Notes under the pieces: generated by a model | Databases searched by the model: none | The model's input: only the letters and a program-made list of their open reading frames with translations | What the model was told of the DNA's origin: nothing | Part shown: piece by piece, positions 5,141 to 56,203 of the stretch | Layout of the letters: every line of letters begins with the position of its first letter | Position numbering within the stretch: position 1 is the first letter of the stretch | Position numbers and translations under genes: made by a program | NCBI GenBank assembly: GCA_017536965.1 | Contig: JAFWCK010000126.1 | Span: forward strand, 709-64,708 | Length of the DNA stretch: 64,000 nucleotides | From: Lachnospiraceae bacterium | Lineage (GTDB): Bacteria > Bacillota > Clostridia > Lachnospirales > Lachnospiraceae | Direction of reading: 5' to 3'

Positions 5141-5316
5141 TATTATTACCTCTGAATGTTCTTACTTTTCCTTAATAATGTATTAAAGCATGTATGTTAA
5201 GACTATTCAATATTTATTTTCTGACGCTTTCGGTTGACAAAGGAATGCGCAGGTGCTATGTTGATTTTGTCGAAAATATCTATTACTTGTTTTGCTTTTT
5301 AATCAAAGGAGGCATC

Positions 5317-6189
5317 ATGGATACAGAGAAATATAAGATCCTGATCAAAACGATTCAAACCGGCAGTTTAAGTGTTGCGGCAGAAGAACTCGGCTATACG
5401 CCATCCGGTGTCAGCAGAGCGATTTCTTCACTGGAAGAAGAAGCAGATATCATTCTTCTTAACCGGACACACTCAGGTGTTACCCCAACCAAAGAATGCG
5501 AGGAGCTGCTTCCAGCCATCATCAAGATCGTCCGTCAGGAAGAAGAGTTTAACCAGATGGCATCCCAGTTAAAAGGACTGGAAAAAGGAGAGATCGTAAT
5601 CGGTACAGCCTATAACAACTTCTATCCGCAGCTCTCCAAAACCATCTATAATTTCACCCGTAAATATCCGGACATCACAGTAAGTATCGTGGAAGGAACA
5701 TCCAGCAGTCTGGTAAAAATGCTGGAAAACAATGCAGCAGATTTCTGTATCATCAGCAAACGAAAAGGCACCTATCACTGGGTCCATCTGCTGGAAGATG
5801 AATTAGTTGCCTGGGTTTCCAAGAACAGCCTATATGCAGGGAGAGAATACTTTGATATCCGTGATTTTGAGAAAGAACCTTTTATCGATGTCTACACCGG
5901 AATGGAAACAGATAATTCTATGCTCTTTGAAGAAAAGAAGATCCGTCCGAATACCAAATACCGTACAAGAGAACCATATTCTGCTTATGCAATGGTGGAA
6001 GCAGGCCTTGGTGTCACATTGATGAACAAGATCTGGCTGCAGTCCATGGGAGACGGTGTTGTCGCTCTCCCCCTGAATCCGCCGCAAATGATCAACATTG
6101 GCATTGCCATGCAGTCGGAAGAGAACGCTTCTCCGGCTGCAAAACGGTTCATTCAGTTCACTTCTGAACATCCGTTTCTGGCGGACTAA
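5317..6189 (+). CDS. LysR family transcriptional regulator, divergent from metY
   Basis: ORF 5194..6189. I prefer ATG 5317 because it is preceded by AAGGAGG. HTH segment SLSVAAEELGYTPSGVSRAISSLEE. Confidence 0.8.
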   Translation: MDTEKYKILIKTIQTGSLSVAAEELGYTPSGVSRAISSLEEEADIILLNRTHSGVTPTKECEELLPAIIKIVRQEEEFNQMASQLKGLEKGEIVIGTAYNNFYPQLSKTIYNFTRKYPDITVSIVEGTSSSLVKMLENNAADFCIISKRKGTYHWVHLLEDELVAWVSKNSLYAGREYFDIRDFEKEPFIDVYTGMETDNSMLFEEKKIRPNTKYRTREPYSAYAMVEAGLGVTLMNKIWLQSMGDGVVALPLNPPQMINIGIAMQSEENASPAAKRFIQFTSEHPFLAD

Positions 6190-25766: not shown

Positions 25767-26750
25767 TTACTGCTTGACCTCTATCTGTGAGCACATCTGT
25801 ATGATCAACTCTAAAAATTCCTTTCGGAACTCTTCATAGTGTTCCGGGTGTTTCGTTCCCATAGCATTTAGAGTCTTCCCATCATCAAATCCAAAACTCA
25901 TCTGGAACCACTCTTTATTTGCATAATCTTCATCCGTCTCATCATAATTGTACCAGGTGATCAGATCATATTTCTCAATTAATTCCTGGATCCCGGCAAA
26001 ATCGATCTTATCTGCTTCTACAGCCTCATAATACTGGTAGGTGCCTTCCGGAAGCAGTTCCCCGCTTACTGAAGATATCTGCACGTCAAAGTTTTTCTCT
26101 CTGACTCCAGGCATAGTAATAAAGATCTCATATTTATCGCTTCCAGATGCCCCTCTTTGCATATAATTGACCATCATAAACGTTAGTTTTCCCGATATGC
26201 CTTCTGCAATCTTCTCCTGTCTTTTCTCTTCCAGCATTTCCTGCTTCAGAGGGGAAAACAATGCTTCCATTTTTTCGCAAAAGTCCTTATAGCCCTCCGG
26301 GGTGCTGTTGCTTCCATATGCAGAAAGTGATCGTCCATCTCGAAACGTGATGGAAAGGGAAAAGCCGTCCCCATCCAATACATGGTCGTTGGTCTTGTCA
26401 AAACCGTCCCATGCTGCCAGATGGCAGTCCTGATAGAGCTGCGTCAGCTGGTCCAGAAACGCGCCATCCACTTCCCGGGTCAGTTCTCCGTAATCCGGAT
26501 ATAACATGCTCTCATAAACGAAGAAATGTTTCCCATCCTCTTCATTGATAGAATAAGAATAGGAGTCACCCCCTATCGACCCGTGATAAGCATAATAAAA
26601 CGTATCTACACCGCTTTGATCACCTTCCGCATTCATTCCTGCTCCGTCAGATCCGCTCATGCCGTTTTCCGGGTCCGGATTTCGCTTGCAACCGGCAAAT
26701 GCTCCGATGATTCCCATCGCTAACAAGATCGTGATAATACTTTTTTTCAT
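25767..26750 (-). CDS. Lipoprotein of unknown function with two internally similar domains
   Basis: ORF 25767..26792; start MKKSIITILLAMGIIGAFAGC at 26750. Two repeats share a W.G/Y.D...DG..F..S..F.DG..L.A.G...PE.Y..F pattern. Confidence 0.6.
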   Translation of the reverse strand: MKKSIITILLAMGIIGAFAGCKRNPDPENGMSGSDGAGMNAEGDQSGVDTFYYAYHGSIGGDSYSYSINEEDGKHFFVYESMLYPDYGELTREVDGAFLDQLTQLYQDCHLAAWDGFDKTNDHVLDGDGFSLSITFRDGRSLSAYGSNSTPEGYKDFCEKMEALFSPLKQEMLEEKRQEKIAEGISGKLTFMMVNYMQRGASGSDKYEIFITMPGVREKNFDVQISSVSGELLPEGTYQYYEAVEADKIDFAGIQELIEKYDLITWYNYDETDEDYANKEWFQMSFGFDDGKTLNAMGTKHPEHYEEFRKEFLELIIQMCSQIEVKQ

Positions 26751-26770
26751 TGTCCTTTCCTCAACAAACC

Positions 26771-27229
26771 CTACCGATTCCTTTGTTTCCAAACTTTTTC
26801 CAGGGTTTCATATACAACAGGATTCGGATGCCCTGTTTCAAAGTACCGTGAGTTATCTGCTCCAAGCATTTTGGCAGCAAACGCAGCTACCGCTCTGGAA
26901 CGTGACTCTCCTCCGTAACAGTGCACCAACAGAGTCTCTGCGGCTTTATTTTTCTGCAGGAAATCGATGATCTTCTCTGCATGTTCCTGATTGAATAAAA
27001 CCGCACCGTCCACTTCTTTCACAGTATCATCAAAATAAAGAGTCAGGACATCTTTGCAGTATTTATTTGTTCGAAATTCAAAACCGAATCCCTCTGTATG
27101 TGTATCCTGAATAGAGATCACCACATAGGTATCTTGTTTTTGAGCCATTTCCTCCATCCCTGCAGGCGCATAATGTGCCATTACATAGTCAAATGCGTCA
27201 TAGACGGAGCGCAGCATAATCCGTTTCAT
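26771..27229 (-). CDS. Cys-based phosphatase-like protein (HCx5R motif)
   Basis: LLVHCYGGESRSRAV fits the HC-X5-R(S/T) signature. Confidence 0.6.
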   Translation of the reverse strand: MKRIMLRSVYDAFDYVMAHYAPAGMEEMAQKQDTYVVISIQDTHTEGFGFEFRTNKYCKDVLTLYFDDTVKEVDGAVLFNQEHAEKIIDFLQKNKAAETLLVHCYGGESRSRAVAAFAAKMLGADNSRYFETGHPNPVVYETLEKVWKQRNR

Positions 27230-27243
27230 ATTTATACCACTCT

Positions 27244-27933
27244 TTAATATGTATTTTCCGTTCCGTAATAATCCGCTGCATTCTGCACTGGTTCACTCTT
27301 GTACCAGATCGGGCTGTCATTTCTGCGGACTGCAAACAGAAAGATCGGATAAAGGAATGAAAATACCAATGACAAAACAAACAGCACGATGTATTTCCCG
27401 GAGCAGCTTTTATATATGTGAAATAAACTGACATTGAGAAAAACCGTGGCAATTGCCAATAATATATAACTGATCGCAGCAATCGCCAGCCCAACATAAA
27501 AGACAGGATCAGAGACGGCCTCTTGTGCATGTCGCTGCAATATATCAAAGTCTCCCCGGTATATAGAATCGATCAGTTCCGGTGAGAAACGGATCGCAAC
27601 CAGATTCAAAAAAGTACTAACACCGGAAAGAACACCGCCGGCTATTAGAAAGATTGGATAAAGCGCAACGTAATGGCTCCTCCTGCCACGTTTTTTGAGC
27701 ACTGCATCATCTGCAATCTGCCCAAGTTTAAACATAGAAATGAATGGAATCCAGGCAAGCGCACTGGCACTAAGATGGCGCCTCCGGCTGATGGTATACA
27801 TCCCGATTCCCTTAAAGATATAAAAAACCAATGCAAAAACCAGCCAAAGCAGAACAAAAGCTGCGCATATAATGATAAGAATAGGTCCTACTGCCATTTT
27901 TACTTCCTCTTTTCTATTATTTAGCGAATCCAT
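27244..27933 (-). CDS. Multi-pass membrane protein, unknown function
   Basis: 229 aa with about 5 hydrophobic helices; preferred over the overlapping ORF 27198..27548. Confidence 0.55.
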   Translation of the reverse strand: MDSLNNRKEEVKMAVGPILIIICAAFVLLWLVFALVFYIFKGIGMYTISRRRHLSASALAWIPFISMFKLGQIADDAVLKKRGRRSHYVALYPIFLIAGGVLSGVSTFLNLVAIRFSPELIDSIYRGDFDILQRHAQEAVSDPVFYVGLAIAAISYILLAIATVFLNVSLFHIYKSCSGKYIVLFVLSLVFSFLYPIFLFAVRRNDSPIWYKSEPVQNAADYYGTENTY

Positions 27934-34389: not shown

Positions 34390-35562
34390 CTAGACCGCAA
34401 AGCTGATCTTGGACAGCTCTTCGTGCTTTGTATTCGGCATAACGTGTGCATATAAATCCATTGTCATTTTTAATGTGCTATGTCCTAACAGAGCTTTTAA
34501 GGTGTTCGGCTGCATACCCTGTTCAATACACCGGGTAGCGAATGTGTCCCGGAATCCATGTACTGTGAACGGAGCGAAGAATCCTTTTTCCTTTTCATTG
34601 ATCTTTGAGATTATATGCTCCAAACAGGCATCAACGGAATTGTAATGAGCCAGCGTTCCTTTTGTACTCGGAAAGACAATAGCGTTACTCGATCCGAACA
34701 GCATTGAATTTTTCTCTTTCTGATCCAGCAGAATCTTTTTGAGATCATCCGTCAGAGGGATAGTCCTGTTGCTGCTGCCTGTTTTCGGGGAATCTGACAA
34801 ACTATATTCTTTGTTTGAAACCTTTGAAACGGTTTTCCCGATGCGGATTTCATTTCTGTTGAAATCCACATCAAACCAAGTGAGGGCTGCTGCCTCTCCG
34901 ATCCGACACCCGGTAATAAGCAGAAATCGAAACAGATTATAGTAATAACTGCCCTCTGCGTTTTTCATCAGCAGCTTTGTTTCTTCAACCGTCAATGCTC
35001 TGTGATTTGTGAGAGCTGCTTTCGGCTTTTCAGATTTCAAAGTCTTTATGCCGTTGCATGGATTATAGTTGATGATCCTGTCATTAATTGCACTATTAAG
35101 AATCTGCTTGAGCAATCTTGTCACCCGGTTGATTGTGTCAGCCGTGAGGGTGATCTTTTCTCCGTTCTTGTCCGTTGCAAGTTCACCTTTCTTGTTCTTG
35201 CGATACTCTTTCTTCATGGCTGTTTGCATTTGCAGCACATCCATTTTTGAAATAGTGACAATCTGCCGTTTTCCTAAATACTTTTCAAGGTGTTGCCAAG
35301 ATTTCTTATAGCTGTATATTGTAGAGGTCTTAACCTCTTTCGCCTGTTCCTCAATCCAAAAGGAATAGTATTTTTCCAGCGTGATCTTGTGATTGTCAAT
35401 GTGCATACGATTCTTTAAGCGTTCCAGCAACTCGTCTTTTTTCTCTTCACATTCTGTCTGTGTATGTCCGTATACGAAATGCCGGACACCCTCAAAAGTA
35501 AAGGCTAATCTGTATAGCTGCTTTCCTCGATCGTAATAGAATCCTTTAGGTAATCTTTTCAT
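34390..35562 (-). CDS. int: Tyrosine recombinase (phage-type integrase)
   Basis: 390 aa; C-terminal catalytic blocks GCRIGEAAAL (Arg), HGFRDTFATR (H-x-x-R), LGHSTLKMTMDLYAHV (His...Tyr). Confidence 0.9.
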   Translation of the reverse strand: MKRLPKGFYYDRGKQLYRLAFTFEGVRHFVYGHTQTECEEKKDELLERLKNRMHIDNHKITLEKYYSFWIEEQAKEVKTSTIYSYKKSWQHLEKYLGKRQIVTISKMDVLQMQTAMKKEYRKNKKGELATDKNGEKITLTADTINRVTRLLKQILNSAINDRIINYNPCNGIKTLKSEKPKAALTNHRALTVEETKLLMKNAEGSYYYNLFRFLLITGCRIGEAAALTWFDVDFNRNEIRIGKTVSKVSNKEYSLSDSPKTGSSNRTIPLTDDLKKILLDQKEKNSMLFGSSNAIVFPSTKGTLAHYNSVDACLEHIISKINEKEKGFFAPFTVHGFRDTFATRCIEQGMQPNTLKALLGHSTLKMTMDLYAHVMPNTKHEELSKISFAV

Positions 35563-35676
35563 ATCTGCTACCCCCTTTGCTATGCGGATAGCAGAAACGT
35601 AATAACCACGATTCGGATTATATACTTTTTTTCTGTTATCTGCAAGTATTATCTTTTATTTTTGTTTGTGTTGTGG

Positions 35677-35939
35677 TATAATATTTTATTTTTCTTTATT
35701 ATGAAATTTCCTTTTGAAAGCCCCTAATTCGCCATTACAGGGCTTTTAGGGTCTTTGTGAAGGTTTTATTGTTTTTGGATTAATTGTCTGAAATCGCTTG
35801 CAATACGGCTGTAATTTGATAAGATAAAGACGGAAACACCGTTTCCAGCTGGCAAGTCTCTGACCCCGGCAACATCGTTTGGTCGGTGGGCGGTGTTTCG
35901 CTGACGGTTTTAGGCTACCCCCTTTGACCGTCTTTTTTT
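35677..35939 (+). ncRNA. Candidate about 250-nt non-coding transcript (extended -10 promoter to intrinsic terminator) between int and the upstream ORF
   Basis: TGGTATAAT at 35674-35682. Hairpins AAAGCCC...GGGCTTT and GAAACACCG...CGGTGTTTC. Terminator GACGGT-N18-ACCGTC plus T7 (35903-35939). No ORF longer than 8 codons. Confidence 0.4.
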
Positions 35940-35954
35940 ATGATCCGGCAGCAG

Positions 35955-36251
35955 TTATTTGATCTGCTGCCGTTCGTTTGCCTCAATGCCATAATCCCTT
36001 TTCATGGCTACTTTCCAGAGTTCATACTCAAGGGCTGCTATTGCTCTTGCTGCTGCCTCGGGTGTTTTAGCTCTGATTGTGTATTTCTCGTCACCAATCT
36101 CTGAATATGTCTCAAGTTCCAGCGTGATAGACACGGCATTTTCTTTTTTGCTCTTTCCGCTTGCAATACCGCCTTTTCGTCCCATTTCTGAAAGCTGTTC
36201 TTTCGTCCGCTGGCTGTTCGGAATCAGATTTTTTAAACTGTTCGGATTCAT
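35955..36251 (-). CDS. Hypothetical protein with N-terminal basic KGG-type segment (NPNSLKNL...GRKGGIASGKSKKE)
   Basis: ORF track with an AGGGA RBS; the N-terminal motif is seen in many phage/plasmid small proteins (recollection only). Confidence 0.5.
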   Translation of the reverse strand: MNPNSLKNLIPNSQRTKEQLSEMGRKGGIASGKSKKENAVSITLELETYSEIGDEKYTIRAKTPEAAARAIAALEYELWKVAMKRDYGIEANERQQIK

Positions 36252-36352
36252 ATTTCCCTTTCTGCTTCTTTATTCTCTCGTGCGTGCGTGCGTGAAAGCA
36301 TCCTTTAACTCTTTGAATCGGGGTGAATCGGGCTTTGAATTGCTTGCCGTTT

Positions 36353-36748
36353 TTAGGGGTCGGAAATCTTGCATATTGCTTTTTCAATATTATTCTTGAT
36401 CAACTGCAATCTATGTAGCTCCGTCCCGGGTGGAATGTCCCCGGCAACAATCGACATATCCTTTTTTATTTGTGGCAGCAGCTCCCGATCCCCTGTCATA
36501 AGCCCGATACACTCTACAGCTTTCAACAAAAGTACCTTTGTCTCTTTCCCTTGCTGTATGCCTTTTACAAGCTCCGTTCTGCACTCCCCAGCTCTTTTGA
36601 TATTCTCTTGGTATTCTTTATAGGCTTTCCGTATCTGCTGCCGTTCTGCCTGTTCCGCAAACAAGGAATTATCCGGCAAGCTCTCCGGCAGCTTATTTGA
36701 TCTGCTGCCGGGAGCAATCTTTTCAAGGGCTGTGAAATCTATCTGCAT
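36353..36748 (-). CDS. Hypothetical protein
   Basis: ORF track; AAGAGG RBS; the start overlaps the stop of the helicase gene. Confidence 0.5.
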   Translation of the reverse strand: MQIDFTALEKIAPGSRSNKLPESLPDNSLFAEQAERQQIRKAYKEYQENIKRAGECRTELVKGIQQGKETKVLLLKAVECIGLMTGDRELLPQIKKDMSIVAGDIPPGTELHRLQLIKNNIEKAICKISDP

Positions 36749-37926
36749 CGGTCAGCCTCTTTAAAATAATTAAACCTCGGATAGTACTGATACTTGATCC
36801 GGTCTCCTGTTCTGCCGTTTCTGTTTTTCAAAATAACCGCCTCGATTTCCCTAGGGTCTTTGCTCTTTGCCTCGGTAGGATCAAAATCAGCTTCACCAAT
36901 TCCGGCAAGGTCAAGCCCGATTACTACATCCGATCCATACTCAAGGCTGCCGGATTCTTTGAAACCGCTGAAATCAGCTTTCGTTTTATATCCGGCTCTG
37001 TTGAAACTGCTGATTGCAATTACAGGGCTTTTAAAGTCTCTGCTGATCCGCTTCAGTTCCAATACCGCCTTATCAATATTCTGCTTGTCGCTTGCCTTAA
37101 TATCGTAAGGGGCTAAAATCTGCACATAGTCAACTACCACAACCGGGATATTACCTAGAATTCTTGTGTGCCTTTCAACCGCCTCTCTGATCTGATTAAC
37201 CCCTATATCTCCTATCCCCTCATAAATGAAAATGTGTTCTGCGTATGTGCCGTACTCCTTTATAGCCGATTTGATCAACTGCCGTTCCTGTTCGGAATAA
37301 TTCTTATATCGTGATCCGTCTGTGATCCCTCTTGCTGTTTTTGCGTTATCCATTCCGGCTTTGAGCATTGTTAATCTCGAAACAGATTTTGAGATTAAGT
37401 CCTCTTTCGGCATTTCCATGGCAAATATGATCACATCATTTCCCTGTGCTGCGATCTGATCTGCCATCTGCATGATTAGCGTTGTCTTTCCCAGCGAAGT
37501 AATTGCCCCCACAACATACAGACCGCTATACAATCCACCGTCCAGCACTTGATCAAGTGTCGGAAATCCCGATCTGATCACCGGGGAATTCATTGAAGCA
37601 GCTATACCGTCAACAAACTCTTGTAAATATCCGGCAGCAGATTCTTTTTGCAACTGCTGCCGTTCTTCCTCAATCGTTTTCGCCTCGGTCTTTTCAACGT
37701 ACTCTTTCAAACTATTCTTTGTTTCCTCAATGCTTTGCCCTTTGCGTTCCGCATCAGTCAATATTTCAATCACGCTTGCCCCGGTCAGCCCTGTTCGGCT
37801 GGCATAGTCTGTGATTTCTTCCAATGTCAGCCCGAAGTGATCAATACCATAGGCTATAATTGCCCCGGTACTCGTCAAATCGTTCTGTTCTTCCCTCAAT
37901 ACCTCTTGTACTTCTTTTAGTTCCAT
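36739..37926 (-). CDS. DnaB-like replicative helicase (RecA-fold C-terminal domain with a unique N-terminus)
   Basis: Walker A GAITSLGKTT, Walker B VVVDYVQIL, SRDFKSPVIAISSFNR. Confidence 0.8.
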   Translation of the reverse strand: MELKEVQEVLREEQNDLTSTGAIIAYGIDHFGLTLEEITDYASRTGLTGASVIEILTDAERKGQSIEETKNSLKEYVEKTEAKTIEEERQQLQKESAAGYLQEFVDGIAASMNSPVIRSGFPTLDQVLDGGLYSGLYVVGAITSLGKTTLIMQMADQIAAQGNDVIIFAMEMPKEDLISKSVSRLTMLKAGMDNAKTARGITDGSRYKNYSEQERQLIKSAIKEYGTYAEHIFIYEGIGDIGVNQIREAVERHTRILGNIPVVVVDYVQILAPYDIKASDKQNIDKAVLELKRISRDFKSPVIAISSFNRAGYKTKADFSGFKESGSLEYGSDVVIGLDLAGIGEADFDPTEAKSKDPREIEAVILKNRNGRTGDRIKYQYYPRFNYFKEADRCR

Positions 37927-38138
37927 TATTTCTCCTGTCTCATATTCCAGCGTTCAACAACTCTCCGGCTTACCACATCAAGAGTATTAATCGGATTGTT
38001 GCCAACAGCCAGCCAATCGTTATTAATGCACCGGGTACACTTCACTTTGACAATGTGTCGGGGTTTTCCCTCGCTGTATTCTTCGATCAGCTCTGCCGGG
38101 CTGCCACAATATTTACAATTCGATAATTTCATATTCAA
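37926..38138 (-). CDS. Lar-family-like zinc-ribbon protein (restriction alleviation-like)
   Basis: 70 aa; CKYCG...CTRC plus C-terminal VVERWNMR, resembling the Lar CxxC...CxxC...AWNRR pattern. Confidence 0.5.
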   Translation of the reverse strand: MNMKLSNCKYCGSPAELIEEYSEGKPRHIVKVKCTRCINNDWLAVGNNPINTLDVVSRRVVERWNMRQEK

Positions 38139-38210
38139 CGATATTTCCTCATTTGTCTTTCTGATCCATCAAAGGGGAATCGCCTCTCTCAAAAGAGCGA
38201 TTTCCCCCTT

Positions 38211-38262
38211 TCTAGAAATTTCTAAAAATTTCTAAAAATTAAGAAAAATTTCTAACCTCGGA
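38211..38262. repeat. AT-rich tract with four AAATTTCTA(A/G) repeats, candidate DNA-unwinding element
   Basis: TCTAGAAATTTCTAAAAATTTCTAAAAATTAAGAAAAATTTCTAACC. Confidence 0.55.
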
Positions 38263-38301
38263 AACCCTAGGGGGACAAGGCTTTGCAGAATCGCCACCCG
38301 A

Positions 38302-38383
38302 AGTAATACGGAGCTTTAGCGGTAGTAATACGGAGCTTTAGCGGTAGTAATACGGAGCTTTAGCGGTAGTAATACGGAGCTTT
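38302..38383. repeat. Iterons: 22-bp direct repeat AGTAATACGGAGCTTTAGCGGT x 3.7
   Basis: Perfect copies at 38302, 38324 and 38346, plus a 16-bp partial copy at 38368 that abuts the Rep-like stop codon. Confidence 0.9.
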
Positions 38384-39259
38384 TTACTCTCCCGGCATCT
38401 CAAAAATCACAAGTCTTTCAGCAAAGGAATGATAGTTTTCGCCCGGGTCAATCGGCTTGTCATATCTCCAGTCATTGATCACCCCGGCTCTTTTGATCAC
38501 ATCTAAATTTGCTTCAAAAGGTTTTCTGATCCTGTCTCGCCAACTGTCACGCTGTTTTAAAACGTTCTCGTAATCCGGCAAGCTGGACACATTGAGCAGC
38601 GTTCCCACCTTTAACCGATCCGATGATCCTTTACCTCTGTTGCCCTTGTTCCCGGAATGGGTGATGATCTTTGAGGCTATAGCATAGGCTGTTTGATTCT
38701 TTCCGCTGATCCGCATCAGCTCTTTTGGAATTTTCACTAAAGGCTTTTTATGAAGATACTCCGCAAAAGTCTGTCCGAATCTCATTGTGATCCTGTTCCG
38801 TTTAACCTCTCCTACACTATCCAGCAGATTGACACTCTGCCACCTTTTGCCGTCATCCCACGAAAGCTGGACAGCCTGTAAGGTTTTCAAGTCCTGTCTA
38901 ATCTGCTCGTGTGCGTGATCTCTCCGGCTCTTTGTGCTTATGTCATATCCCACAAGGCAGCAGTACTCATCAAAAGGAATCGTGACAGGGCGGTTGATCG
39001 TCTTGCTTTTTCCGAATCCGTTTTGAATCGTGAAAGCAGCAAGCCCGGCAATCAGCAGATTATTTGTCCCAACGCCGAGACCGCTTTTCAATCCGAATTT
39101 ATGCAACCCGAAATCCACTCCGAGCTTATTAATCCTAACTTCGCCTGTGACAGAATCGGCAGCAGCCCTTTTGCTAGTGACTGCTGCCATTGCATCAATA
39201 GGCTTTGCGTGATGAATGGTCAGCACTTCCGGCATTGTTCCGGGCTTTTCATTCTTCAT
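38384..39259 (-). CDS. Putative replication initiator (Rep-like, winged-helix type)
   Basis: ORF 38384..39355. I prefer ATG 39259 (MKNEKPG), which overlaps the Xis-like stop by 11 nt. Adjacent to the iterons. Similarity to Rep proteins is only pattern-level (NQTAYAIASKIITH). Confidence 0.45.
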   Translation of the reverse strand: MKNEKPGTMPEVLTIHHAKPIDAMAAVTSKRAAADSVTGEVRINKLGVDFGLHKFGLKSGLGVGTNNLLIAGLAAFTIQNGFGKSKTINRPVTIPFDEYCCLVGYDISTKSRRDHAHEQIRQDLKTLQAVQLSWDDGKRWQSVNLLDSVGEVKRNRITMRFGQTFAEYLHKKPLVKIPKELMRISGKNQTAYAIASKIITHSGNKGNRGKGSSDRLKVGTLLNVSSLPDYENVLKQRDSWRDRIRKPFEANLDVIKRAGVINDWRYDKPIDPGENYHSFAERLVIFEMPGE

Positions 39260-39470
39260 CTGCTGCCTCAAGCTGTACGGTATCGTTTTCGGAAAAGTAC
39301 TCGTCAATTTTCCGAAGATCATATACACATCTTTTCCCAATCCGTTTTTCCGCACCGATCTTTACGGCTGTTACTTTTGCTGTTTGAGTTCCTACTCCCA
39401 TATAATCGGCAGCAGCTCTCAAGTTCACAAAGCGTTTGTCATTGTTTGCGTCAACATTTCTAAATTTCAT
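39249..39470 (-). CDS. Excisionase/AlpA-like small HTH DNA-binding protein
   Basis: 73 aa; FVNLRAAADYMGVGTQTAKV HTH; first gene of the leftward operon. Confidence 0.55.
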   Translation of the reverse strand: MKFRNVDANNDKRFVNLRAAADYMGVGTQTAKVTAVKIGAEKRIGKRCVYDLRKIDEYFSENDTVQLEAADEE

Positions 39471-39497
39471 TATTCTTTACCTCGTTTTTTTATATTT

Positions 39498-39542
39498 TGA
39501 AGTACTTCATGTTGACAGAATACAGTCCATAAGGTGTATAAT
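39498..39542. promoter_or_regulatory. Divergent switch region: 12-bp palindrome TGAAGTACTTCA plus a rightward TTGACA / TGTATAAT promoter
   Basis: Palindrome 39498-39509; TTGACA 39512-39517; TGTATAAT 39535-39542. Confidence 0.55.
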
Positions 39543-39587
39543 CAATTTGTCAATAGATTAAATTTTAGTGAGGTATATAAAAGAAAT

Positions 39588-40268
39588 ATGTCTAATTCAT
39601 TTTACACATTCACGCAAGAAGAATTGAAAACGATCAGCAACAGATTACAAGCAAAAATGCAAGCTGCCGGAATATCGCAGCGACAGCTTGCGAATAAGAG
39701 CAAGGTCTCTCGTGCCAATATCAACGACATGATAAACGGACATTATTCTTCTGACGGTAGCAACGAGAAAGTGTTCCGCAATCACAAGCCGGAAACATAC
39801 AAAAAAATATGTGACGGTTTTGATATATTAGGCGAAGTATGCAGCATGGAATATCTACTCGGAGAGGTGAGGCAATCGACACACGATCTACAATTCATCT
39901 GTGATTACACCGGGCTATCAGAGGAAGCTGTGAGAAAACTGCACGAACAGAAATCAGACCCTCTAAATCTGCTTCAACTACAAGTTTTATCTACCGCTAT
40001 TGCAAAAACCGATCTGTCTGCTCGTATGGCTGATTATTGGCAGCTACAGCCAGCAAGCGAATCAGCTAATATAACATTGGAATACCGAGAAAAAAATATC
40101 ATCAATCACACCATTACTACCGGGGCAACAGAAAGCAAACATACTGATCCGAGTATCAGAATCAATGGGGTGGACATAGGCTTGCAGACCGTCAAAGAAG
40201 TTGTTCTAAAGGAAATCCAAAAAGAATTAGAGCTTATGATTAAAGAGGATCAGAAGAAACCTCGCTGA
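39588..40268 (+). CDS. XRE-family HTH regulator with an uncharacterised C-terminal domain of about 150 aa (candidate element repressor)
   Basis: ORF 39534..40268, but its first ATG overlaps the -10 box. ATG 39588 follows GTGAGGT. HTH ISQRQLANKSKVSRANINDMINGH. Confidence 0.65.
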   Translation: MSNSFYTFTQEELKTISNRLQAKMQAAGISQRQLANKSKVSRANINDMINGHYSSDGSNEKVFRNHKPETYKKICDGFDILGEVCSMEYLLGEVRQSTHDLQFICDYTGLSEEAVRKLHEQKSDPLNLLQLQVLSTAIAKTDLSARMADYWQLQPASESANITLEYREKNIINHTITTGATESKHTDPSIRINGVDIGLQTVKEVVLKEIQKELELMIKEDQKKPR

Positions 40269-49321: not shown

Positions 49322-51556
49322 ATGACGCTGAAGGAAAGTTTTTTAGAATTCCTGCACCACGGCAAAACCTACAGTAAAAAACAAATAATAAGCGCGGCTA
49401 TCTTTCCCGCTGCGCTTATTTATTTTGAAGTTCTGTTTCGTATTATATCTGTAAAAGAATGGCCGGGCTTCTGGTGGTGGCTGGCTATGATCTGTGCTTC
49501 GATCGTAGGCGGGCTTCTTCTCACTATGCTCTGTACGATCACCAAAAATGAAAAGATCAATAATATTATTGGCTTGATCGTTCTGCAGGCAGCCAGCGTC
49601 ATATTTATGATCTTTCATTTCGTCGGATTTGAGTTCAATATCTATATTGGACCACAGGGGATTTTCGGCGGAGCCGGTGGCGTGGCCGGGGAAGCAAGTG
49701 ATTATATCTTTCAGATCATCCTTGGGAACTGGACCACGATCCTCATTTTTGAGATCCCGATCCTTCTCTATATTCTTTTCCTGGTCCTGAAAAAAATCAG
49801 TTTTCAACGTTTTCGGGGAACTGGTTATATTCAGATCCTGATGATCGCAACTCTGGTAGAAGTGATCGCTACCCTTCCAATCTGCAATCTGAATCCTTCC
49901 TGGAAAATTGCAACGCGGGAATTTACTTTTGATACATCCGTAAAGTTTTTTGGTGTTCAGACATCTACAAAGCTGGATACCTTATACGCGATTTTCAAAA
50001 ACCCTTTCAAAATGCATTTTATCATTGAGAATGATCCTCCGGTGATCACTAACAAGGATTCTTATCATATGACAGACATCGACTTTGATTATATTGCAGA
50101 TCACACAACAGAATTCTCCGTCCTGGAGATCAATAAATACGTCAAAAGCGAGATGCCTGCTAAAAAGAACGAATACACAGGAATGTTCAAAGGAAAAAAC
50201 CTGATTCAAATTACAGCAGAATCCTTTACACCGTATGTCGTCGATGAAGAGTTGACGCCCGTCCTGTATCGGCTTATTAATAATGGAATCCGTTTTGACA
50301 ACTATTATCAGCCTCTTTGGAACGGTTCCACAACCACAGGTGAATTTCTGATCATGACCGGGCTCCTTCCTGCAAACGGGTACTATTCCATGTTGGAAAC
50401 GGTTGGTGATAACATGCATCTGACGATCGGCAATCAGCTGATGAAAGAAGGATACACAAGTATCGCATATCATAACGGAACCTATGATTACTTCGACCGT
50501 AATCTGACGCACTGTAATCTGGGCTATTCCCGCTTTGTAGCAAACGGAAGCGGTATGTATGGTCTGTCAGGCAGAACCGCCTGGCCGCAAAGTGATGTGG
50601 AGATGATGCAGTTTTCTATCCCGCGGTATATAGATAAAACACCTTTTAATATTTATTACATGACATTAAGCGGGCACTCGAAATATGATTCCAAGAACTT
50701 TATCGTCAACAAAAATATCGCTGAAGTCCGCGCATGGGCAGAACGTAAAGGATATGACTATACAAATGCGGTTCTAAGCTATATCGCCGCAAACCTGGAG
50801 TTTGAAAAATCCATGGAATATCTGCTGCAGCAGCTGAAGGACGCCGGTCTTTTAGAGGATACAGTTATTGTTATGTCTGCCGACCATTATCCATACAGCC
50901 TCTCAGATGATTACGTCATCGATGAAAAAGGTCATGTGGATTACTTCAATGTTGAAGCAAACCTGATCAATATGTTTGGTTTTACCCCTGAATTCAACCC
51001 GGATTATCATCACAACGCACTTGTTATCTGGACACCATCTTTAGAGGGTGAAAACAGCATCGTAGTGACCGATCCGGTGCAGCCGGTTGATATTCTGCCA
51101 ACCGTTTCAAATCTTTTCGGTTTTGACTATGATTCCAGACTGCTTGCAGGAAGAGACGTACTGGATATGGAAACTGAGCCGCTGGTCATTTTCTCTGACT
51201 ACAGCTGGCTGTCCACTTACGGGTACTATGACTACAGAACAGAAACCTTCATCCCAATGGATGAACTGAAGACCTCCAAAGAAACCATTCCGAGATGTTT
51301 TGCAGATCACGGCCCGCTGAAAACCCTGACCTATGAAAATCCGATAGACAAGGCAAATGCTGCAAAAGGTATCACAACGTACGGCGGTTATGAAAAACTG
51401 GATGATTACATCAAGCATATCAGTAACGTTGTACAGAACAAGATGGTCTTATCGCAGAACGTTCCTTTGCAGGATTATTACGGTCTGATCTGGGGCAAGA
51501 TCCAAACGCAGGATGATGCTCTCGGGCAGGGTGCACATGGTCAGATAGACCAATAA
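49322..51556 (+). CDS. LTA synthase/sulfatase-family membrane protein (LtaS-like)
   Basis: N-terminal 5 TM helices plus an extracellular alkaline-phosphatase-superfamily domain (ITAESFTP, MSADHYPY). Confidence 0.7.
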   Translation: MTLKESFLEFLHHGKTYSKKQIISAAIFPAALIYFEVLFRIISVKEWPGFWWWLAMICASIVGGLLLTMLCTITKNEKINNIIGLIVLQAASVIFMIFHFVGFEFNIYIGPQGIFGGAGGVAGEASDYIFQIILGNWTTILIFEIPILLYILFLVLKKISFQRFRGTGYIQILMIATLVEVIATLPICNLNPSWKIATREFTFDTSVKFFGVQTSTKLDTLYAIFKNPFKMHFIIENDPPVITNKDSYHMTDIDFDYIADHTTEFSVLEINKYVKSEMPAKKNEYTGMFKGKNLIQITAESFTPYVVDEELTPVLYRLINNGIRFDNYYQPLWNGSTTTGEFLIMTGLLPANGYYSMLETVGDNMHLTIGNQLMKEGYTSIAYHNGTYDYFDRNLTHCNLGYSRFVANGSGMYGLSGRTAWPQSDVEMMQFSIPRYIDKTPFNIYYMTLSGHSKYDSKNFIVNKNIAEVRAWAERKGYDYTNAVLSYIAANLEFEKSMEYLLQQLKDAGLLEDTVIVMSADHYPYSLSDDYVIDEKGHVDYFNVEANLINMFGFTPEFNPDYHHNALVIWTPSLEGENSIVVTDPVQPVDILPTVSNLFGFDYDSRLLAGRDVLDMETEPLVIFSDYSWLSTYGYYDYRTETFIPMDELKTSKETIPRCFADHGPLKTLTYENPIDKANAAKGITTYGGYEKLDDYIKHISNVVQNKMVLSQNVPLQDYYGLIWGKIQTQDDALGQGAHGQIDQ

Positions 51557-51579
51557 CATCTAATTAAAAAAAATCCTTG

Positions 51580-51617
51580 CCGGTATGACATAGAAATGAT
51601 GTCATACCGGCTTTTTT
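51580..51617 (+). terminator. Intrinsic terminator
   Basis: CCGGTATGACAT-N7-ATGTCATACCGG followed by CTTTTTT. Confidence 0.85.
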
Positions 51618-51658
51618 ACAAGCAAAAATGCTTTTTTTCTATCTTTTTCACGTCCTGG

Positions 51659-52123
51659 TGTCATTAAATATATGTCGTTATGACATTATTTTTATGACGT
51701 TAATGAAAATTTTCCATTATTTTTGATTACTTTTTTGTCTTTTTTATGACAGATTGACACAAATTAATTGTCGTTCTGTCAAATTTTTATTCAAAAGATC
51801 TGTTTTTCTTTTTTATTTTTCTTCAATGTCAATCTAAAAATGACATTTTGTCATAATATCAATGTCGCAAATGTTATTATTACTTCTAATTATTCAATTT
51901 CTATTTACTTTTTTGTCGTTCTGACATTATTTTCATGTCACTTCGTCAATTTCCTTTTAAAATAAGCTCATTTTCCCTTTTGTTTTCAAAGAGCGTGAGT
52001 GGATTTATGCCATTTTGTCATTATTTTTTTGTCATTTTGTCACTTTTTAAATATTTTTTTAATTTACCTATTGACATTTATGTCGTTATGTCATATAAAT
52101 AATGACGTACTGACAAACAGTCA
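51659..52123. repeat. Phased array of about 24 TGWCR pentamers in six clusters (nine 13-bp TGWCR-N3-TGWCA units)
   Basis: Pentamer starts: 51659, 51673, 51681, 51695, 51736, 51747, 51755, 51769, 51777, 51827, 51841, 51849, 51863, 51914, 51922, 51936, 51944, 52016, 52030, 52038, 52072, 52081, 52089, 52103, 52111, 52119. Confidence 0.8.
52071..52099 (+). promoter_or_regulatory. Candidate glnA promoter
   Basis: TTGACA (52071-52076) - 17 nt - TATAAA (52094-52099). Confidence 0.55.
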
Positions 52124-52289
52124 GTCTCCAAAACTCATTTTCAGAGCCCTATCTGAAAAAATATCGAGATTGAGGCCTGTGGTGTCTGGCACCGTGAACT
52201 TTTTCTTTAATGATCTAATCTAAAGTCCAATCATTAATTCGCCCTAACCCTTTTTCAAGTTCACGGGGTCAGACACCTTCGAAGGTACC

Positions 52290-53618
52290 ATGAAGTACAC
52301 AAAAAACGAGATCAACAAAATAGTGCACGACGAGGACGTCAGATTTATCCGTTTACAGTTTACGGATATTTTTGGTTCTATGAAAAATGTTTCTATTACC
52401 CCTAGCCAGCTGGAAAAGGCTCTGGATAATAAGATACGTTTTGACGGCTCCTCTATTGATGGATTTGTTCGGATTGAAGAATCTGATATGGCTCTTTACC
52501 CGGATCTGGATTCTTTTGCAATCCATCCTTGGGGCCAGGAGCGCGGGAAAGTTGCACGGTTGATCTGCGATGTATATAAAATCGACGGAAAACCATTTGA
52601 AGGCGACCCGCGCTATGTGCTCCGCAAAGCACTCGCTCATGCTTCGGATATGGGCTATGAATTTAATGTCGGCCCGGAGTGTGAATTCTATCTGCTGAAA
52701 AATGATGAAAAAGGCAACCCTACTCTGGATGCATATGATAAAGGCGGCTATTTCGACCTGGGACCAAATGATCTGGGGGAAGAAGCCAGAAAAGATATTG
52801 TTCAGGCATTAGAAGCCCTCGGATTTGTCATTGAGGCTTCTCATCATGAATGCGGTCCTGCACAGCATGAGATCGATTTCATGTACGCTGAGGCTTTGCA
52901 GGCGGCTGACAGTATCATGACGTTTAAATACGCCGTTAAAACAGTTTCTGAGCAGCACGATCTGTATGCCACTTTCATGCCAAAGCCAATCTCAAATGAA
53001 GCTGGAAATGGAATGCATTTAAATATGTCCCTATCGAAAAATGGAAAAAATGCTTTCATTGACGATAAAGATAAAAATGGTCTGAGCAAGGAGGCCTACT
53101 CTTTTATGGCCGGAATCATGCGTCATATCGAAGGCATCTCCATCGTGACAAATCCGCTGGTTAATTCTTATAAACGTTTAGTTCCGGATTTTGAAGCCCC
53201 GGTCTATATCGCGTGGTCTGCCCAGAACCGCTCTCCTCTGATCCGTGTTCCAAGCAGCCGTGGACAAAGTACGCGAATCGAACTCCGTAGTCCGGATCCT
53301 TCGGCTAATCCGTATCTTTCTCTTGCACTCTGTCTGGAGGCAGGTTTGGAAGGTATCCAAAAAGAAATGGTTCCTCCTGCTTCCATTGATAAAAACATTT
53401 TTGAAATGAGCCGCAGGGAATTAACACGAAGCGGTGTCAAAAAGCTTCCTGCGAACCTGTTTGAGGCAATCAGTAAAGTAGAAAAAGACCCATTCATCGC
53501 CCACGTTTTAGGTTCTCATATTTATGATCGTTATGTGGAAGCTAAAAAAAGAGAATGGAACGAATATAGTATGTGTGTCTCCGATTGGGAGATTGATAAT
53601 TATCTGTTCAAATACTAA
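52290..53618 (+). CDS. glnA: Glutamine synthetase, type I
   Basis: 442 aa; FDGSSI, GPECEFYL, HHECGPAQHEIDF, NGMHLNMSL, RSPDPSANPYL. Confidence 0.95.
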   Translation: MKYTKNEINKIVHDEDVRFIRLQFTDIFGSMKNVSITPSQLEKALDNKIRFDGSSIDGFVRIEESDMALYPDLDSFAIHPWGQERGKVARLICDVYKIDGKPFEGDPRYVLRKALAHASDMGYEFNVGPECEFYLLKNDEKGNPTLDAYDKGGYFDLGPNDLGEEARKDIVQALEALGFVIEASHHECGPAQHEIDFMYAEALQAADSIMTFKYAVKTVSEQHDLYATFMPKPISNEAGNGMHLNMSLSKNGKNAFIDDKDKNGLSKEAYSFMAGIMRHIEGISIVTNPLVNSYKRLVPDFEAPVYIAWSAQNRSPLIRVPSSRGQSTRIELRSPDPSANPYLSLALCLEAGLEGIQKEMVPPASIDKNIFEMSRRELTRSGVKKLPANLFEAISKVEKDPFIAHVLGSHIYDRYVEAKKREWNEYSMCVSDWEIDNYLFKY

Positions 53619-53627: not shown

Positions 53628-54062
53628 ATGCCACATGCTTATGTAGATGGAAGTTATAATGTCTCAACAAAACGATTCGGATACGGAATCGTTTTGTTTA
53701 CAGATGCATATAATGCGGACGGGACGCCACAGGAGATCCGCATGTCAAAAGCTTTTTCCCATGATGAGCTAGCTGAAATGCGCAATGTCGCCGGGGAGAT
53801 CATGGGGGCCGCCCAGGCAATGAAGACCGCAAAAGCTTTGGGTTTAAAAGAACTGACGATTTATCATGATTACGAAGGTATCGCAAAATGGTGTACCGGA
53901 GAGTGGAAGACAAAAAAAGAATGGACCAAAAAATACAAAGCCTTCTACGATGAGATCAGTCAGGATATCACTGTAACCTTTCAAAAAGTTGAAGCACATT
54001 CCGGAAATCAGTATAATGACATTGCTGATAAACTGGCAAAGGAGGCTGTGGGGAACAAATGA
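53628..54062 (+). CDS. RNase H type 1-like protein
   Basis: YVDGSY...E...YHDY...HSGNQYNDIADKLAK fits the DEDD RNase HI pattern. Confidence 0.7.
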   Translation: MPHAYVDGSYNVSTKRFGYGIVLFTDAYNADGTPQEIRMSKAFSHDELAEMRNVAGEIMGAAQAMKTAKALGLKELTIYHDYEGIAKWCTGEWKTKKEWTKKYKAFYDEISQDITVTFQKVEAHSGNQYNDIADKLAKEAVGNK

Positions 54063-55075
54063 AGCGTAAAAGAATCATACCTATCTGCATTACTCTGCTC
54101 TTGATCTTTGTTATGGTCCTTACGGGGTGTAGAAAGAAAAATGAAGAGCCGGTAACATCGCAGACCGAAACAACTACAGAAAAGAAACAGCAGGAAACCA
54201 CAACCAAAAAATCACAGGAAACAACCGCAGAGGCTACGACGGCAGACTCTGCGACGGCAGAGCCTGCTACAGAAGAAGCTATAGATTGGACGCAGGAAAA
54301 GGACCCTGGATATTATGCAGGTGATACTTATTTTACAGGCTATTCGATCTGGGTCAATCTGGCATATTGCACCGTAACAGTTTATGAATGCTATTCTGAC
54401 GGAGGGCAATACCCAATCCGGTCGATGGCATGCTCTTGCGGTCGTGCCGGTCAGGAAACTCCAGAGGGAGTTTTCTATACCAGCGACAAATACGATTGGG
54501 GTTATATGGCAGACGGGTCATGGGCATCTTATGTCACAAGATTCAATGGGGATATCCTCTTCCACTCAGTTCCAAGCTGGGAACCGGACTCTGGAAATAT
54601 CGAGATTGGAGAATACAATAAGCTCGGAGGACCGGCTTCATTAGGCTGTATTCGTCTCTGTGTAGCAGATGCTGCCTGGATCTACTATAACATGCCTTGG
54701 GGAACGCAGGTTGTTGTTTACACAGATTACAGCAGCGCCGGACCATGGGGAATACCGGGAGCCTACAAAGTACCAGATGATATCCCACAAGTACGCCAAT
54801 GGGATCCAACTGATCCGGACCCACGCAATCCATGGCCTTATTATACGATATCCATCGGCCCGGATAATGTGTCCCTGCCAGCAGGCAGTTCTTTCGAATC
54901 TTTGTATAACGCTCTTTCCATCACAGATAACTACGGAAACAGCGTAAAGCATTATGCATACATAAATACCGATGCAGTTGATTTCAGCACGCCTGGCAGT
55001 TATGATGTGTACATCAACATTTATCTGGGATCTTCCTATGCAGAAAAATACATTTCAGTAACTATTACCGAATAA
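54059..55075 (+). CDS. L,D-transpeptidase (YkuD domain) lipoprotein
   Basis: Lipobox VLTGCR; FHSVP...ASLGCIRL catalytic motif. Confidence 0.8.
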   Translation: MKRKRIIPICITLLLIFVMVLTGCRKKNEEPVTSQTETTTEKKQQETTTKKSQETTAEATTADSATAEPATEEAIDWTQEKDPGYYAGDTYFTGYSIWVNLAYCTVTVYECYSDGGQYPIRSMACSCGRAGQETPEGVFYTSDKYDWGYMADGSWASYVTRFNGDILFHSVPSWEPDSGNIEIGEYNKLGGPASLGCIRLCVADAAWIYYNMPWGTQVVVYTDYSSAGPWGIPGAYKVPDDIPQVRQWDPTDPDPRNPWPYYTISIGPDNVSLPAGSSFESLYNALSITDNYGNSVKHYAYINTDAVDFSTPGSYDVYINIYLGSSYAEKYISVTITE

Positions 55076-55090
55076 AAAGGAGTCATCTAT

Positions 55091-56203
55091 ATGGCAAACA
55101 GACCAAACAGGCCAACCAGCCAGCCAGTCAGGCGACAGCCGGGGCGAACCAGCAGTCAGGCTGCTGCCGCAAGAAAAAGACAAAAACAAAGACAGTATAC
55201 TCGGATCCGCATCTTTACGGTCCTGGCTCTTATCCTTTTGATTGCGATCATCGTGGTGATCATAGTAGCCTGCCGGAACAAAAAGGCCAATCCAAACATA
55301 CCGGAAAAACAATCTGAAACCATGACAGAGCAATCCGGTAATAGCGGCATCCCGACCGAATATGTGGAGCCTACCTACCGGAGAGATAATATTGAGATCA
55401 ACGATGACTGGCCGACAGTCGGAGACAGTACTGACTACTCTCTTCACGTGAATACCGCATTAAACGCTACCATTGTTTATTCCAAAGATGGCGATGGCAA
55501 TCTGACGCCGCTGCGCGTCCTCGCCTGCTCCACCGGACGCAGAGACGGACATGAAACACCAGAAGGTGAATTCTACCTGGGCGAGTGGATCATTGGCCCT
55601 GCCAACGAATGGTGCTATATGGCCGATGGTACAGAAGGGCTTTATGCTTATCGTATCATCGACGGTGTTTATAACGATATCATGTTCCACTCTGTTCCGT
55701 ATTATGAAACAGACCATGGGACTCTGGAATATGAAGAATATAATAAACTCGGTAATTATGCTTCTATGGGATGCATCCGGATGTGCTGCGCTGATGTCAG
55801 ATGGCTTGGTCAGCTTTGCGCAGGCGGTACAGAAGTAATCGTTTATTACGATGAAAATGAAGTTCTGCCGATGGAAAAACCGACACCACTCTTTATTCCG
55901 GAAACAGTGGAAGAAGTCCGCGGATGGGACCCGACTGATCCGGAAAGCGCAAACCCATGGCATTCCTACACATTTACCATGGAAGTGCCAAATTCAATCG
56001 AGTTAAGCGTTGGCGCAAATTACGAGGAAGATCCGATAACCAGCAAATTCCATGCAGTTGACTGCTACGGCAACGATGTGACCCAATATATGAAGTATTC
56101 CGGAACCTATGATCCAGCAACAGCAGGAAATTATCCAATCACTGTAACATTGGATCTCGGTCAGTATCACGCAACGAAGGATGTCGTCGTTGTTGTCAAA
56201 TAA
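55091..56203 (+). CDS. L,D-transpeptidase (YkuD domain), N-terminally membrane anchored
   Basis: Basic N-terminus plus TM helix; FHSVP...ASMGCIRM. Confidence 0.8.
   Translation: MANRPNRPTSQPVRRQPGRTSSQAAAARKRQKQRQYTRIRIFTVLALILLIAIIVVIIVACRNKKANPNIPEKQSETMTEQSGNSGIPTEYVEPTYRRDNIEINDDWPTVGDSTDYSLHVNTALNATIVYSKDGDGNLTPLRVLACSTGRRDGHETPEGEFYLGEWIIGPANEWCYMADGTEGLYAYRIIDGVYNDIMFHSVPYYETDHGTLEYEEYNKLGNYASMGCIRMCCADVRWLGQLCAGGTEVIVYYDENEVLPMEKPTPLFIPETVEEVRGWDPTDPESANPWHSYTFTMEVPNSIELSVGANYEEDPITSKFHAVDCYGNDVTQYMKYSGTYDPATAGNYPITVTLDLGQYHATKDVVVVVK

Follow-up and report, generated by a model that had tools for sequence, protein, structure and literature searches.

In Bacillus subtilis, the MerR-family regulators GlnR and TnrA act at glnRA through two adjacent palindromes that lie over the promoter (PMC9249791). 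Here we describe a different arrangement upstream of glnA, the gene of type I glutamine synthetase (GS), in a stretch of 64,000 nucleotides from a Lachnospiraceae bacterium (contig JAFWCK010000126.1 of assembly GCA_017536965.1, positions 709 to 64,708; this whole stretch is called the window hereafter, and all positions count from its first letter). As at glnRA, palindromes with TGT.A-type half-sites lie about two helical turns apart over a glnA promoter, and repression under nitrogen excess is presumed; unlike there, the unit measures 13 bp with a 3-bp centre instead of 17 bp (TGTNA-N7-TNACA), 12 to 17 sites are present instead of two, no glnR gene is linked, and the sites belong to a long, phased array, predicted to be curved, of a kind that is not described for glnRA. 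Neither this motif nor a glnA regulator of Clostridia or Lachnospiraceae turned up in a search of the literature.

Two other groups of systems are close enough to be considered. For FhtR, two 14-nt palindromes in the -10/-35 region of the hrtBA promoter have been described (PMC7858072), and the TetR type includes, with AmtR of Corynebacterium, a master repressor of nitrogen control (PMC8864220). The present locus resembles such TetR double operators in that its units (51 were compared) are palindromes of 13 to 15 bp with 5-bp arms of the TGACA/TGTCA type and a 3-bp centre, and in that two of them, 22 bp apart, straddle the -10 box TATAAA (units at 52081 and 52103). It differs in having up to seven clusters instead of two operators, co-phased A/T tracts and A...T instead of G...C flanks, and no linked tetR gene, whereas tetR is adjacent there. 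The HrtR operator, presumably ATGACACAGTGTCAT, belongs to this group as well.

Long arrays of sites, on the other hand, are known from regulators of the Lrp/AsnC family, which sense amino acids and control nitrogen-assimilation genes, as at ilvIH, pap and gltBDF of Escherichia coli and for the archaeal FL11 with its 13-bp sites. Common to these and to the glnA region are many AT-centred palindromes of 13 to 15 bp, distributed over hundreds of base pairs at integral helical turns (here with a period of 10.4 to 10.7 bp) on DNA that is bent or wrapped around an oligomer (here predicted to be curved). However, adjacent sites lie 22 bp and then 51-52 or 72-74 bp apart and not at the 30-32 bp that match an octameric disc, the consensus is a different one, and no Lrp/AsnC gene is linked. 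Clustered operators with looping or wrapping are also found in phages, namely OR1-3/OL1-3 of lambda CI and the CI wheel of coliphage 186. There, as in the glnA region, two to four palindromic operators lie about two turns apart, with pairwise cooperativity and assembly between clusters (both only proposed for glnA); the phage repressor gene, however, resides in the immunity locus, whereas here a chromosomal metabolic promoter carries up to seven clusters 73 to 95 bp apart.

The intergenic region in question extends from an ltaS-like sulfatase gene to glnA (51557-52289, forward strand; ORF list and Pfam) and houses the array, the promoter and a leader. It measures 733 bp, for which the initial annotation had given 730 bp, and has a GC content of 0.30; the array strand consists of 50% T. 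The gene taken to be regulated, glnA (52290-53618, forward strand; Pfam), matches NCBIfam TIGR00653 with 535 bits at a cut-off of 429. With 100% identity in GlnA, the window corresponds to a metagenome-assembled genome of Lachnospiraceae from the jejunum of sheep (L001). Our recount reproduced the 25 TG[T/A]C[A/G] pentamers that had been reported for 51586-52123, together with their distances of 8 and 14 bp. Between 51620 and 52125, TGWCR occurs 23 times, compared with 2.7 ± 1.5 occurrences (maximum 9) in 2000 dinucleotide-preserving shuffles; such shuffles or first-order Markov models served as controls for enrichment throughout. In an unbiased count, TGACA/TGTCA was the most over-represented 5-mer (16 versus 2.0 expected, z 9.9), followed by ATGTC/GACAT and ATGAC/GTCAT, and distances of 8, 14 and 22 bp predominate in the pair-distance histogram. 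Eight of the nine TGWCR-N3-TGWCA 13-mers in the whole 64 kb fall within the array region. Two units at a 22-bp offset occur four times in the array and neither elsewhere in the window nor in the shuffles; one weak pair at 6179 is all that the rest of the window contains. A like pentamer density and 8/14 phasing in random AT-rich intergenic regions had been named in advance as a reason to abandon the idea, and the other intergenic regions of the window do not have the motif pairs.

The G variant at position 5 of the pentamer always lies on the inner side of an 8-bp pair, and the right arm then tends to open with C (position 9). This makes the unit a palindrome of 13 bp, TGnCR-N3-YGnCA. The pentamer centres are unconstrained: T/T, T/A and A/A combinations are all present, and relatives use G or C as well. 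Fifty-one units from six species give the consensus tTTT-A-TGtCR-TTw-YGnCA-T, i.e. 15 bp with the A/T flanks. Of the nine TGWCR-N3-TGWCA units counted initially, eight were confirmed, whereas the right half of the ninth, TGTCACTTCGTCA (51936), opens with C. When a perfect unit is defined by the eight informative positions, the window array contains 11 of them in 571 bp versus 0.02 expected.

Within the clusters the units are spaced by exactly 22 bp, as had been noted before. Cluster 0 (51578-51612) is formed by TGCCGGTATGACA (51578) and TGTCATACCGGCT (51600), which also build the two sides of the stem in the terminator hairpin of ltaS (51579-51611); the observation that this stem carries a pair holds, and the offset of the pair is 22 bp, in phase with the array. 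In the related locus L003, the aligned place is taken by a simple two-unit cluster that lacks the G+C stem. Cluster 1 (51651-51707) has TGTCGTTATGACA (51673) as its full unit, with degenerate neighbours at -22 and +22 bp of which TGTCA (51659) and TGACG (51695) are left, and cluster 3 (51819-51875) has the full unit TGACATTTTGTCA (51841) with the half-sites TGTCA (51827) and TGTCG (51863). The clusters with 14-8-14 spacing are hence full units with degenerate neighbours at ±22 bp that keep only the nearest half-site. Two units each make up cluster 2 (51747-51781; TGACAGATTGACA at 51747 and TGTCGTTCTGTCA at 51769), cluster 4 (51914-51948; TGTCGTTCTGACA at 51914 and the above-mentioned unit at 51936), which aligns with positions 5627-5661 of the related locus L002, and cluster 5 (52008-52042; TGCCATTTTGTCA at 52008 and TGTCATTTTGTCA at 52030). 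Cluster 6 (52081-52123) comprises TGTCGTTATGTCA (52081), TGACGTACTGACA (52103) and an overlapping weak unit, TGACAAACAGTCA (52111); its spacing had been listed as +8 +14 +8 +8, of which all but the last step stands, the final pentamer being AGTCA. Tandem Repeats Finder reported only two trivial rows and no 22-bp array, and a recent tandem-repeat origin was rejected for this reason. Three small ORFs within the array (65, 55 and 74 aa) were dismissed as coding sequences because whole clusters are inserted or deleted as blocks between species.

The best sigma-A-type promoter candidate of the region lies at 52071-52099 on the forward strand (-35 TTGACA at 52071-52076, 17-bp spacer, -10 TATAAA at 52094-52099), which places the expected start at about 52106. 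The last cluster indeed overlaps this promoter, as had been proposed: the 52081 unit fills the spacer and the 52103 unit covers the expected start, so that the pair straddles the -10 box. The promoter-scan tool did not list this candidate because it demands a T at position 6 of the -10 hexamer. In four relatives (L002, L003, L159 and L160) the element is kept as TTGACT-17-TATAAA, TATATT or TATTAT, and the block of cluster 6 is nearly invariant in the first three of them. No sigma-54 promoter (TGGCAC-N5-TTGCW, -24/-12) was found in 51557-52289 with up to two mismatches allowed, and an NtrC enhancer was rejected accordingly.

In each of six species, the unit positions are best described by a period of 10.4 to 10.7 bp (resultant length 0.86 to 0.97), while periods of 10.0 or 11.0 bp fit poorly. 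The last unit of a cluster and the first of its successor are separated by 51-52 or 72-74 bp and once by 93 bp; first-to-first distances are 52, 73-74, 92-96 and 115-118 bp, and none of 20000 random gap sets was equally periodic. The spectrum of the TTT/AAA tracts peaks sharply at 10.5 bp in the window (z 12) as well as in L002 (z 9), L003 (z 12) and L160 (z 18.5), but not in the short array of L161, and in seven other intergenic regions of the window the corresponding z ranges from -0.7 to 3.7. The signal persists in the linkers alone when the clusters are masked (z 7.4 in the window, 13 in L160 and 6.2 in L003), with none of 1000 shuffles reaching the observed value, and its phase coincides with that of the unit centres. 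One helical face thus accommodates all units together with the phased A/T tracts of the linkers (51612-52070). Since units and linker tracts are co-phased, 0.3 to 0.6 kb of curved DNA is predicted with every operator on the same face, and from the established behaviour of A-tracts the operator dyads are predicted to lie on the side of the narrowed minor grooves, i.e. the concave side, which is the geometry of protein-wrapped DNA.

Relatives were reached via GlnA homologues and their contigs, and thirteen further loci (L159-L171) were inspected besides L002 and L003. The absence of the region from close relatives had been the second outcome named in advance as speaking against a regulatory function, and the array proved to be conserved upstream of glnA. 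In L002 and L003 (GlnA 97% and 92% identical), synteny and clusters are as in the window, with intergenic regions of 563 and 467 bp; the window array has two clusters more than that of L002. Four units precede glnA in L159 (GlnA 86%), whereas in L160 (84%) 15 perfect units, or 16 with one unit matching at seven of eight positions, are spread over about 600 bp upstream of a PF13303 gene followed by glnA, and in L161 (80%) five units lie upstream of the same gene pair. Five loci with GlnA identities of 70 to 79% (L162, L165, L166, L167 and L170) have adjacent PF13303 and glnA genes and just 2 to 4 units, mostly immediately 3' of a TTGACA-17-AATAAT promoter (downstream of it in L162, L165 and L166). 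No units were found at the Parasporobacterium-type loci L163 and L164 or at any glnA locus of 63% identity or less. Perfect units number 8, 8, 4, 15 and 5 in L002, L003, L159, L160 and L161 compared with at most 0.05 expected, and in every carrier they exceed expectation at least 100-fold. Between the window and L002, L003 and L159, informative positions are 91, 76 and 94% identical and the other positions 71, 55 and 65%. About 110 kb of flanking sequence from seven relatives (L159-L165) contained 22-bp pairs nowhere but at the glnA-operon promoter. Clusters are gained and lost between species while the phase stays, and the growth from 2-4 units at GlnA identities of 70-79% to 12-17 units in the window, L002, L003 and L160 with preserved phase argues for a higher-order assembly under selection.

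From our point of view, these data make us highly confident that the region is a specific protein-binding array that controls the glnA promoter. One dimer of a single sequence-specific DNA-binding protein would occupy each 13-bp palindrome (15 bp with the A/T flanks), and neighbours about two helical turns apart would bind cooperatively. With sites and built-in bends all on one face, clusters 73 to 95 bp apart could touch, with 0.3 to 0.6 kb of DNA curving around the stacked dimers or forming micro-loops between them; for a wrapped higher-order complex of this type we consider the chances to be about even. With two units over the -10 box and the start of a near-consensus promoter, the assembled complex should exclude RNA polymerase and switch glnA off, and it is quite probable that the array acts as a repressing element. 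Many weakly coupled cooperative sites would further give a steep, switch-like response. The signal may be nitrogen sufficiency, e.g. glutamine or a cue relayed by PII or GS, although this is a guess from the target gene alone. Taken as one statement, the explanation that we favour on balance is that a repressor assembles cooperatively on the glnA promoter and wraps or loops its DNA. The initial annotation had read the layout as a cooperative multi-site operator or nucleoprotein array; every test that was run agrees with this, and the shared helical face and the co-phased A/T tracts strengthen it. As such, the array would be a multi-operator repressor array of a known type, whereas its sequence-encoded, helically phased superstructure is unusual.

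Several points nevertheless weigh against this interpretation. Protein binding, repression, cooperativity, wrapping and the signal are all deduced from the sequence. No regulator gene was found adjacent to the array or conserved near it, either by Pfam among 35 scanned ORFs of the window or among the called genes of L159-L171, and the searches for regulator and sites covered the 64-kb window and contig fragments of relatives, a scope that does not define a regulon. The TATAAA of the candidate promoter lacks the conserved T at position 6, and its start is a prediction. The phasing statistics of the six species overstate their independence, as these species are kin. Finally, curved DNA upstream can stimulate promoters in Firmicutes, and part of the A/T phasing might do so here.

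This last point leads to the opposite sign of control, namely an upstream activating region at which a bound protein or the curved DNA itself would stimulate glnA when nitrogen is limiting, in the manner of TnrA or NtrC in other organisms, with the promoter-proximal units positioning the activator or working as anti-activator sites. Most units do lie upstream of the -35 element, phased A/T tracts in such a position are known to stimulate Firmicutes promoters, and enteric NtrC has several phased sites upstream of glnA. However, the -35 and -10 hexamers are near consensus with a 17-bp spacer, so that an activator seems unneeded, and a protein bound to the units in the spacer and at +1 would normally stand in the way of RNA polymerase. 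Since units also lie 3' of the promoter in L162, L165 and L166, and the region has no sigma-54 promoter, we regard activation as doubtful.

A second possibility leaves repression untouched and changes the class and stoichiometry of the protein. The pentamer would then be the binding unit, with one ribbon-helix-helix dimer per TGnCA, a tetramer across 8 bp as for MetJ or CopG, and tetramers every 22 bp that form a superhelix. The pentamer itself is palindromic with a free middle base, single pentamers are retained at the ends of the 14-8-14 clusters, the 8-bp spacing is that of the met boxes, and CopG binds a 13-bp pseudo-symmetric element. The preferences for R5/Y9 and A0/T14, though, follow the symmetry of the 13- or 15-mer and not that of the pentamer. 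No ribbon-helix-helix gene lies nearby, and while sequence by itself cannot separate such a protein from a helix-turn-helix dimer, we judge it improbable.

The array might also descend from a mobile element, as the relic or the domesticated form of its iterons, centromere or origin, in which case a winged-helix initiator or a partition protein would bind it and any effect on glnA would be incidental. Iteron origins and the lambda O-some do share with it the 22-bp period on one face, the clusters and the AT-rich curved DNA; the metagenome matches listed (see below) include 22-bp tandem iterons with a TGWCA-N3-TGWCA core beside HTH_36/DnaD_N-like genes, and in L160 four 22-bp tandem repeats abut the array. 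Unlike in iterons, however, only 8 to 10 of 22 positions are conserved here, these form a palindromic core with free spacers, and Tandem Repeats Finder sees no 22-bp array. In the true iterons of the window (38280-38383, by a Rep_3 gene), an unrelated sequence is repeated directly with hardly any variation. Neither rep nor par genes are found beside glnA, and at least six species carry the array on the chromosome in syntenic position and without exception at the glnA-operon promoter, which makes an origin very unlikely.

Equally little speaks for a divergent operator system of the Bacillus GlnR/TnrA type. The half-site TGTCA fits TGTNA, and function and position at the glnA promoter correspond to O1/O2 of glnRA (system: PMC9249791). 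As initially noted, though, TGTNA-N7-TNACA is absent from the intergenic region of the window, and likewise from those of L002 and L003, whereas the same scan found it at the Bacilli-type glnA loci L019, L022 and L025, of which L019 and L022 have a MerR-type GlnR-like ORF directly upstream of glnA. The half-sites are spaced by 8 instead of 12 bp, which turns them by about 137 degrees relative to each other and should be too much for a rigid dimer, and the gene 5' of glnA is ltaS-like and not glnR, so that this explanation, too, appears scarcely credible. A function of the repeats in RNA, or their origin as an artefact of the T-rich composition, is a next to negligible possibility, for although palindromic units could fold 5-bp hairpins and half of the strand is T, the middle bases of about half of the units are non-complementary and hairpins are thus not conserved, the bulk of the array lies upstream of the promoter, the enrichment holds against dinucleotide-preserving and Markov controls, and other AT-rich intergenic regions have neither motif nor phasing.

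The array is flanked by thrS and the ltaS-like gene on one side and by glnA, rnhA and ykuD on the other, with no rep, par or glnR gene among them. Several candidates for the binding protein were rejected since they are not conserved with the array and have no units in front of them: a distant LysR gene of the window (5194-6189), the HTH_3 gene of an integrated element, two small unrelated XRE genes in L161 and L169, and a Crp-like gene beside an ABC transporter in L162 and L170. The last of these forms, together with an NMT1-type ABC transporter, a syntenic block a few kb from PF13303-glnA (L162 2212-5239, L170 130-3318); the two Crp/Fnr-like regulators are 40% identical to each other and have no array units 5' of them. 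A divergent 259-aa gene of L160 had no family match at the curated threshold, and there was no TetR_N match among the 35 ORFs scanned in the window or the called genes at the relatives' loci.

When metagenomes were scanned for pairs of units at a 22-bp distance, the matches listed were mixed and mostly unrelated, i.e. TetR/efflux promoters, heat-shock promoters, phage or plasmid iterons and simple repeats, and included only one further copy of this glnA promoter (L082). It did show that the 5-3-5 grammar with 22-bp spacing serves unrelated proteins. At least eleven contigs from human-gut and other metagenomes carry TTGACA-N3-TGACAGGGTGTCA-CTATAAT-N2-TGACGGGTTGTCA upstream of a TetR-family gene confirmed by Pfam, which is followed by HlyD and ABC efflux genes; with TGACA-N3-TGTCA palindromes on both sides of TATAAT, this promoter is a clear double operator and probably autoregulated. 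As these loci share the layout, TetR-type double operators are, among the matches listed, the closest precedent for the promoter-proximal part of the glnA region, whereas its long phased array is more reminiscent of Lrp/AsnC complexes or phage-repressor operator clusters. In at least seven low-GC aquatic contigs, TGACA-N3-TGTCA pairs at 22 bp precede hsp20-, clpB- and dnaK-like genes and are a candidate heat-shock operator that is not CIRCE, HAIR or CtsR-like. At least eight further contigs contain perfect 22-bp tandem iterons, each with TGWCA-N3-TGWCA, inside or beside genes with HTH_36/DnaD_N-like winged-helix domains, which are probably phage or plasmid replication origins.

The gene neighbourhood of the array varies within the clade. 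In the window, thrS and then the ltaS-like gene, which is on the strand of glnA and has its own clean terminator hairpin, precede the intergenic region, while in relatives the gene upstream of glnA is yhhN or the PF13303 gene. The latter encodes a PTS_EIIC_2-like membrane protein and lies between array or promoter and glnA in L160 (2272-3333), L161 (8740-9816) and L162 (8927-9988). It is found highly conserved at the same position in L165, L166, L167 and L170, and is missing there in the window as well as in L002, L003 and L159. The gap to glnA is 12 to 16 bp among L162, L165, L166 and L167 and 213 bp in L170. Its conservation at this place, 12 bp from glnA in several genomes, suggests a nitrogen-related transporter that is co-regulated with GS. 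A second member of the regulon could not be found through this protein, as every close homologue that was looked up sits in a PF13303-glnA operon. Downstream of glnA in the window are rnhA (RNase HI; 53628-54062) and two ykuD genes (L,D-transpeptidase; Pfam), which are always linked to glnA in the clade (window 53628-56203, L162 5462-8694). They lie downstream of glnA in the window, L159 and L160, and are divergent together with yhhN in L162, L166, L167 and L170, where they share the array-bearing intergenic region. In L160, four 22-bp tandem repeats of GGGGCTTTCATAATGCACCAAC (1450-1545) abut the array, the last copy being 32 bp from the first unit, and their core TTTCATAATGCAC resembles a decayed unit.

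Between promoter and gene, a structured leader RNA (52163-52289, forward strand) forms a long hairpin with a 21-bp stem (arms 52181-52201 and 52257-52277) that ends just 5' of the ribosome-binding site GAAGG; the minimum free energy is -57 kcal/mol for 52106-52295 (z -5.2). Its stretches TGAGGCCTG and GCCCTAACCC are invariant, and it is more conserved than the array. It is also present in L002, L003, L082, L159 (6382-6489), L160 (3351-3444) and L161 (9887-9986), and it stays with glnA and not with the promoter, since it lies between the PF13303 gene and glnA in L160 and L161. Covariation was seen for 2 of 20 pairs in six sequences. Rfam covariance models, including that of the glutamine riboswitch, gave nothing relevant at E ≤ 1 in 51000-53000 apart from three weak, unrelated sRNA hits. 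The leader is a candidate for a new cis-regulatory RNA and might add a second, post-initiation layer of control.

Elsewhere in the window, an integrated plasmid-like element (34390-40268) encodes an integrase (34390-35562), a DnaB-like helicase (36739-37926), a Rep_3 initiator (38384-39355, minus strand) and the HTH_3 gene mentioned above (39534-40268). Its iterons beside the Rep_3 gene consist of four copies of AGTAATACGGAGCTTTAGCGGT at 22 bp, and 10-bp A/T repeats are found at 38209-38248. Three consecutive minus-strand ORFs of 341, 152 and 229 aa (25767-27933) have no Pfam match.

One could finally speculate that in this Lachnospiraceae clade a nitrogen regulator of an undescribed kind polymerises on the 12 to 17 phased operators into a nucleosome-like repressosome of about 0.5 kb, with the leader as a second, undescribed sensor. 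The GS dodecamer might even be the core of such a particle, an idea that comes from the analogy to feedback-inhibited GS, which activates GlnR and TnrA; we consider this bolder scenario unlikely. For the Lachnospiraceae, a dominant family of gut and rumen, no description of glnA control was found in the literature, and the Clostridia-type relatives examined have no GlnR/TnrA boxes of the sort known from Bacilli. The locus now supplies a testable cis-element with consensus, exact sites and a predicted mode of repression, by which the missing regulator can be fished out and the regulon scanned. It is further an unusually clean natural case of putative sequence-encoded DNA wrapping at a metabolic promoter over about half a kilobase, in which clusters come and go while the phase is kept, and might be useful as a model of switch-like repression by cooperative binding.

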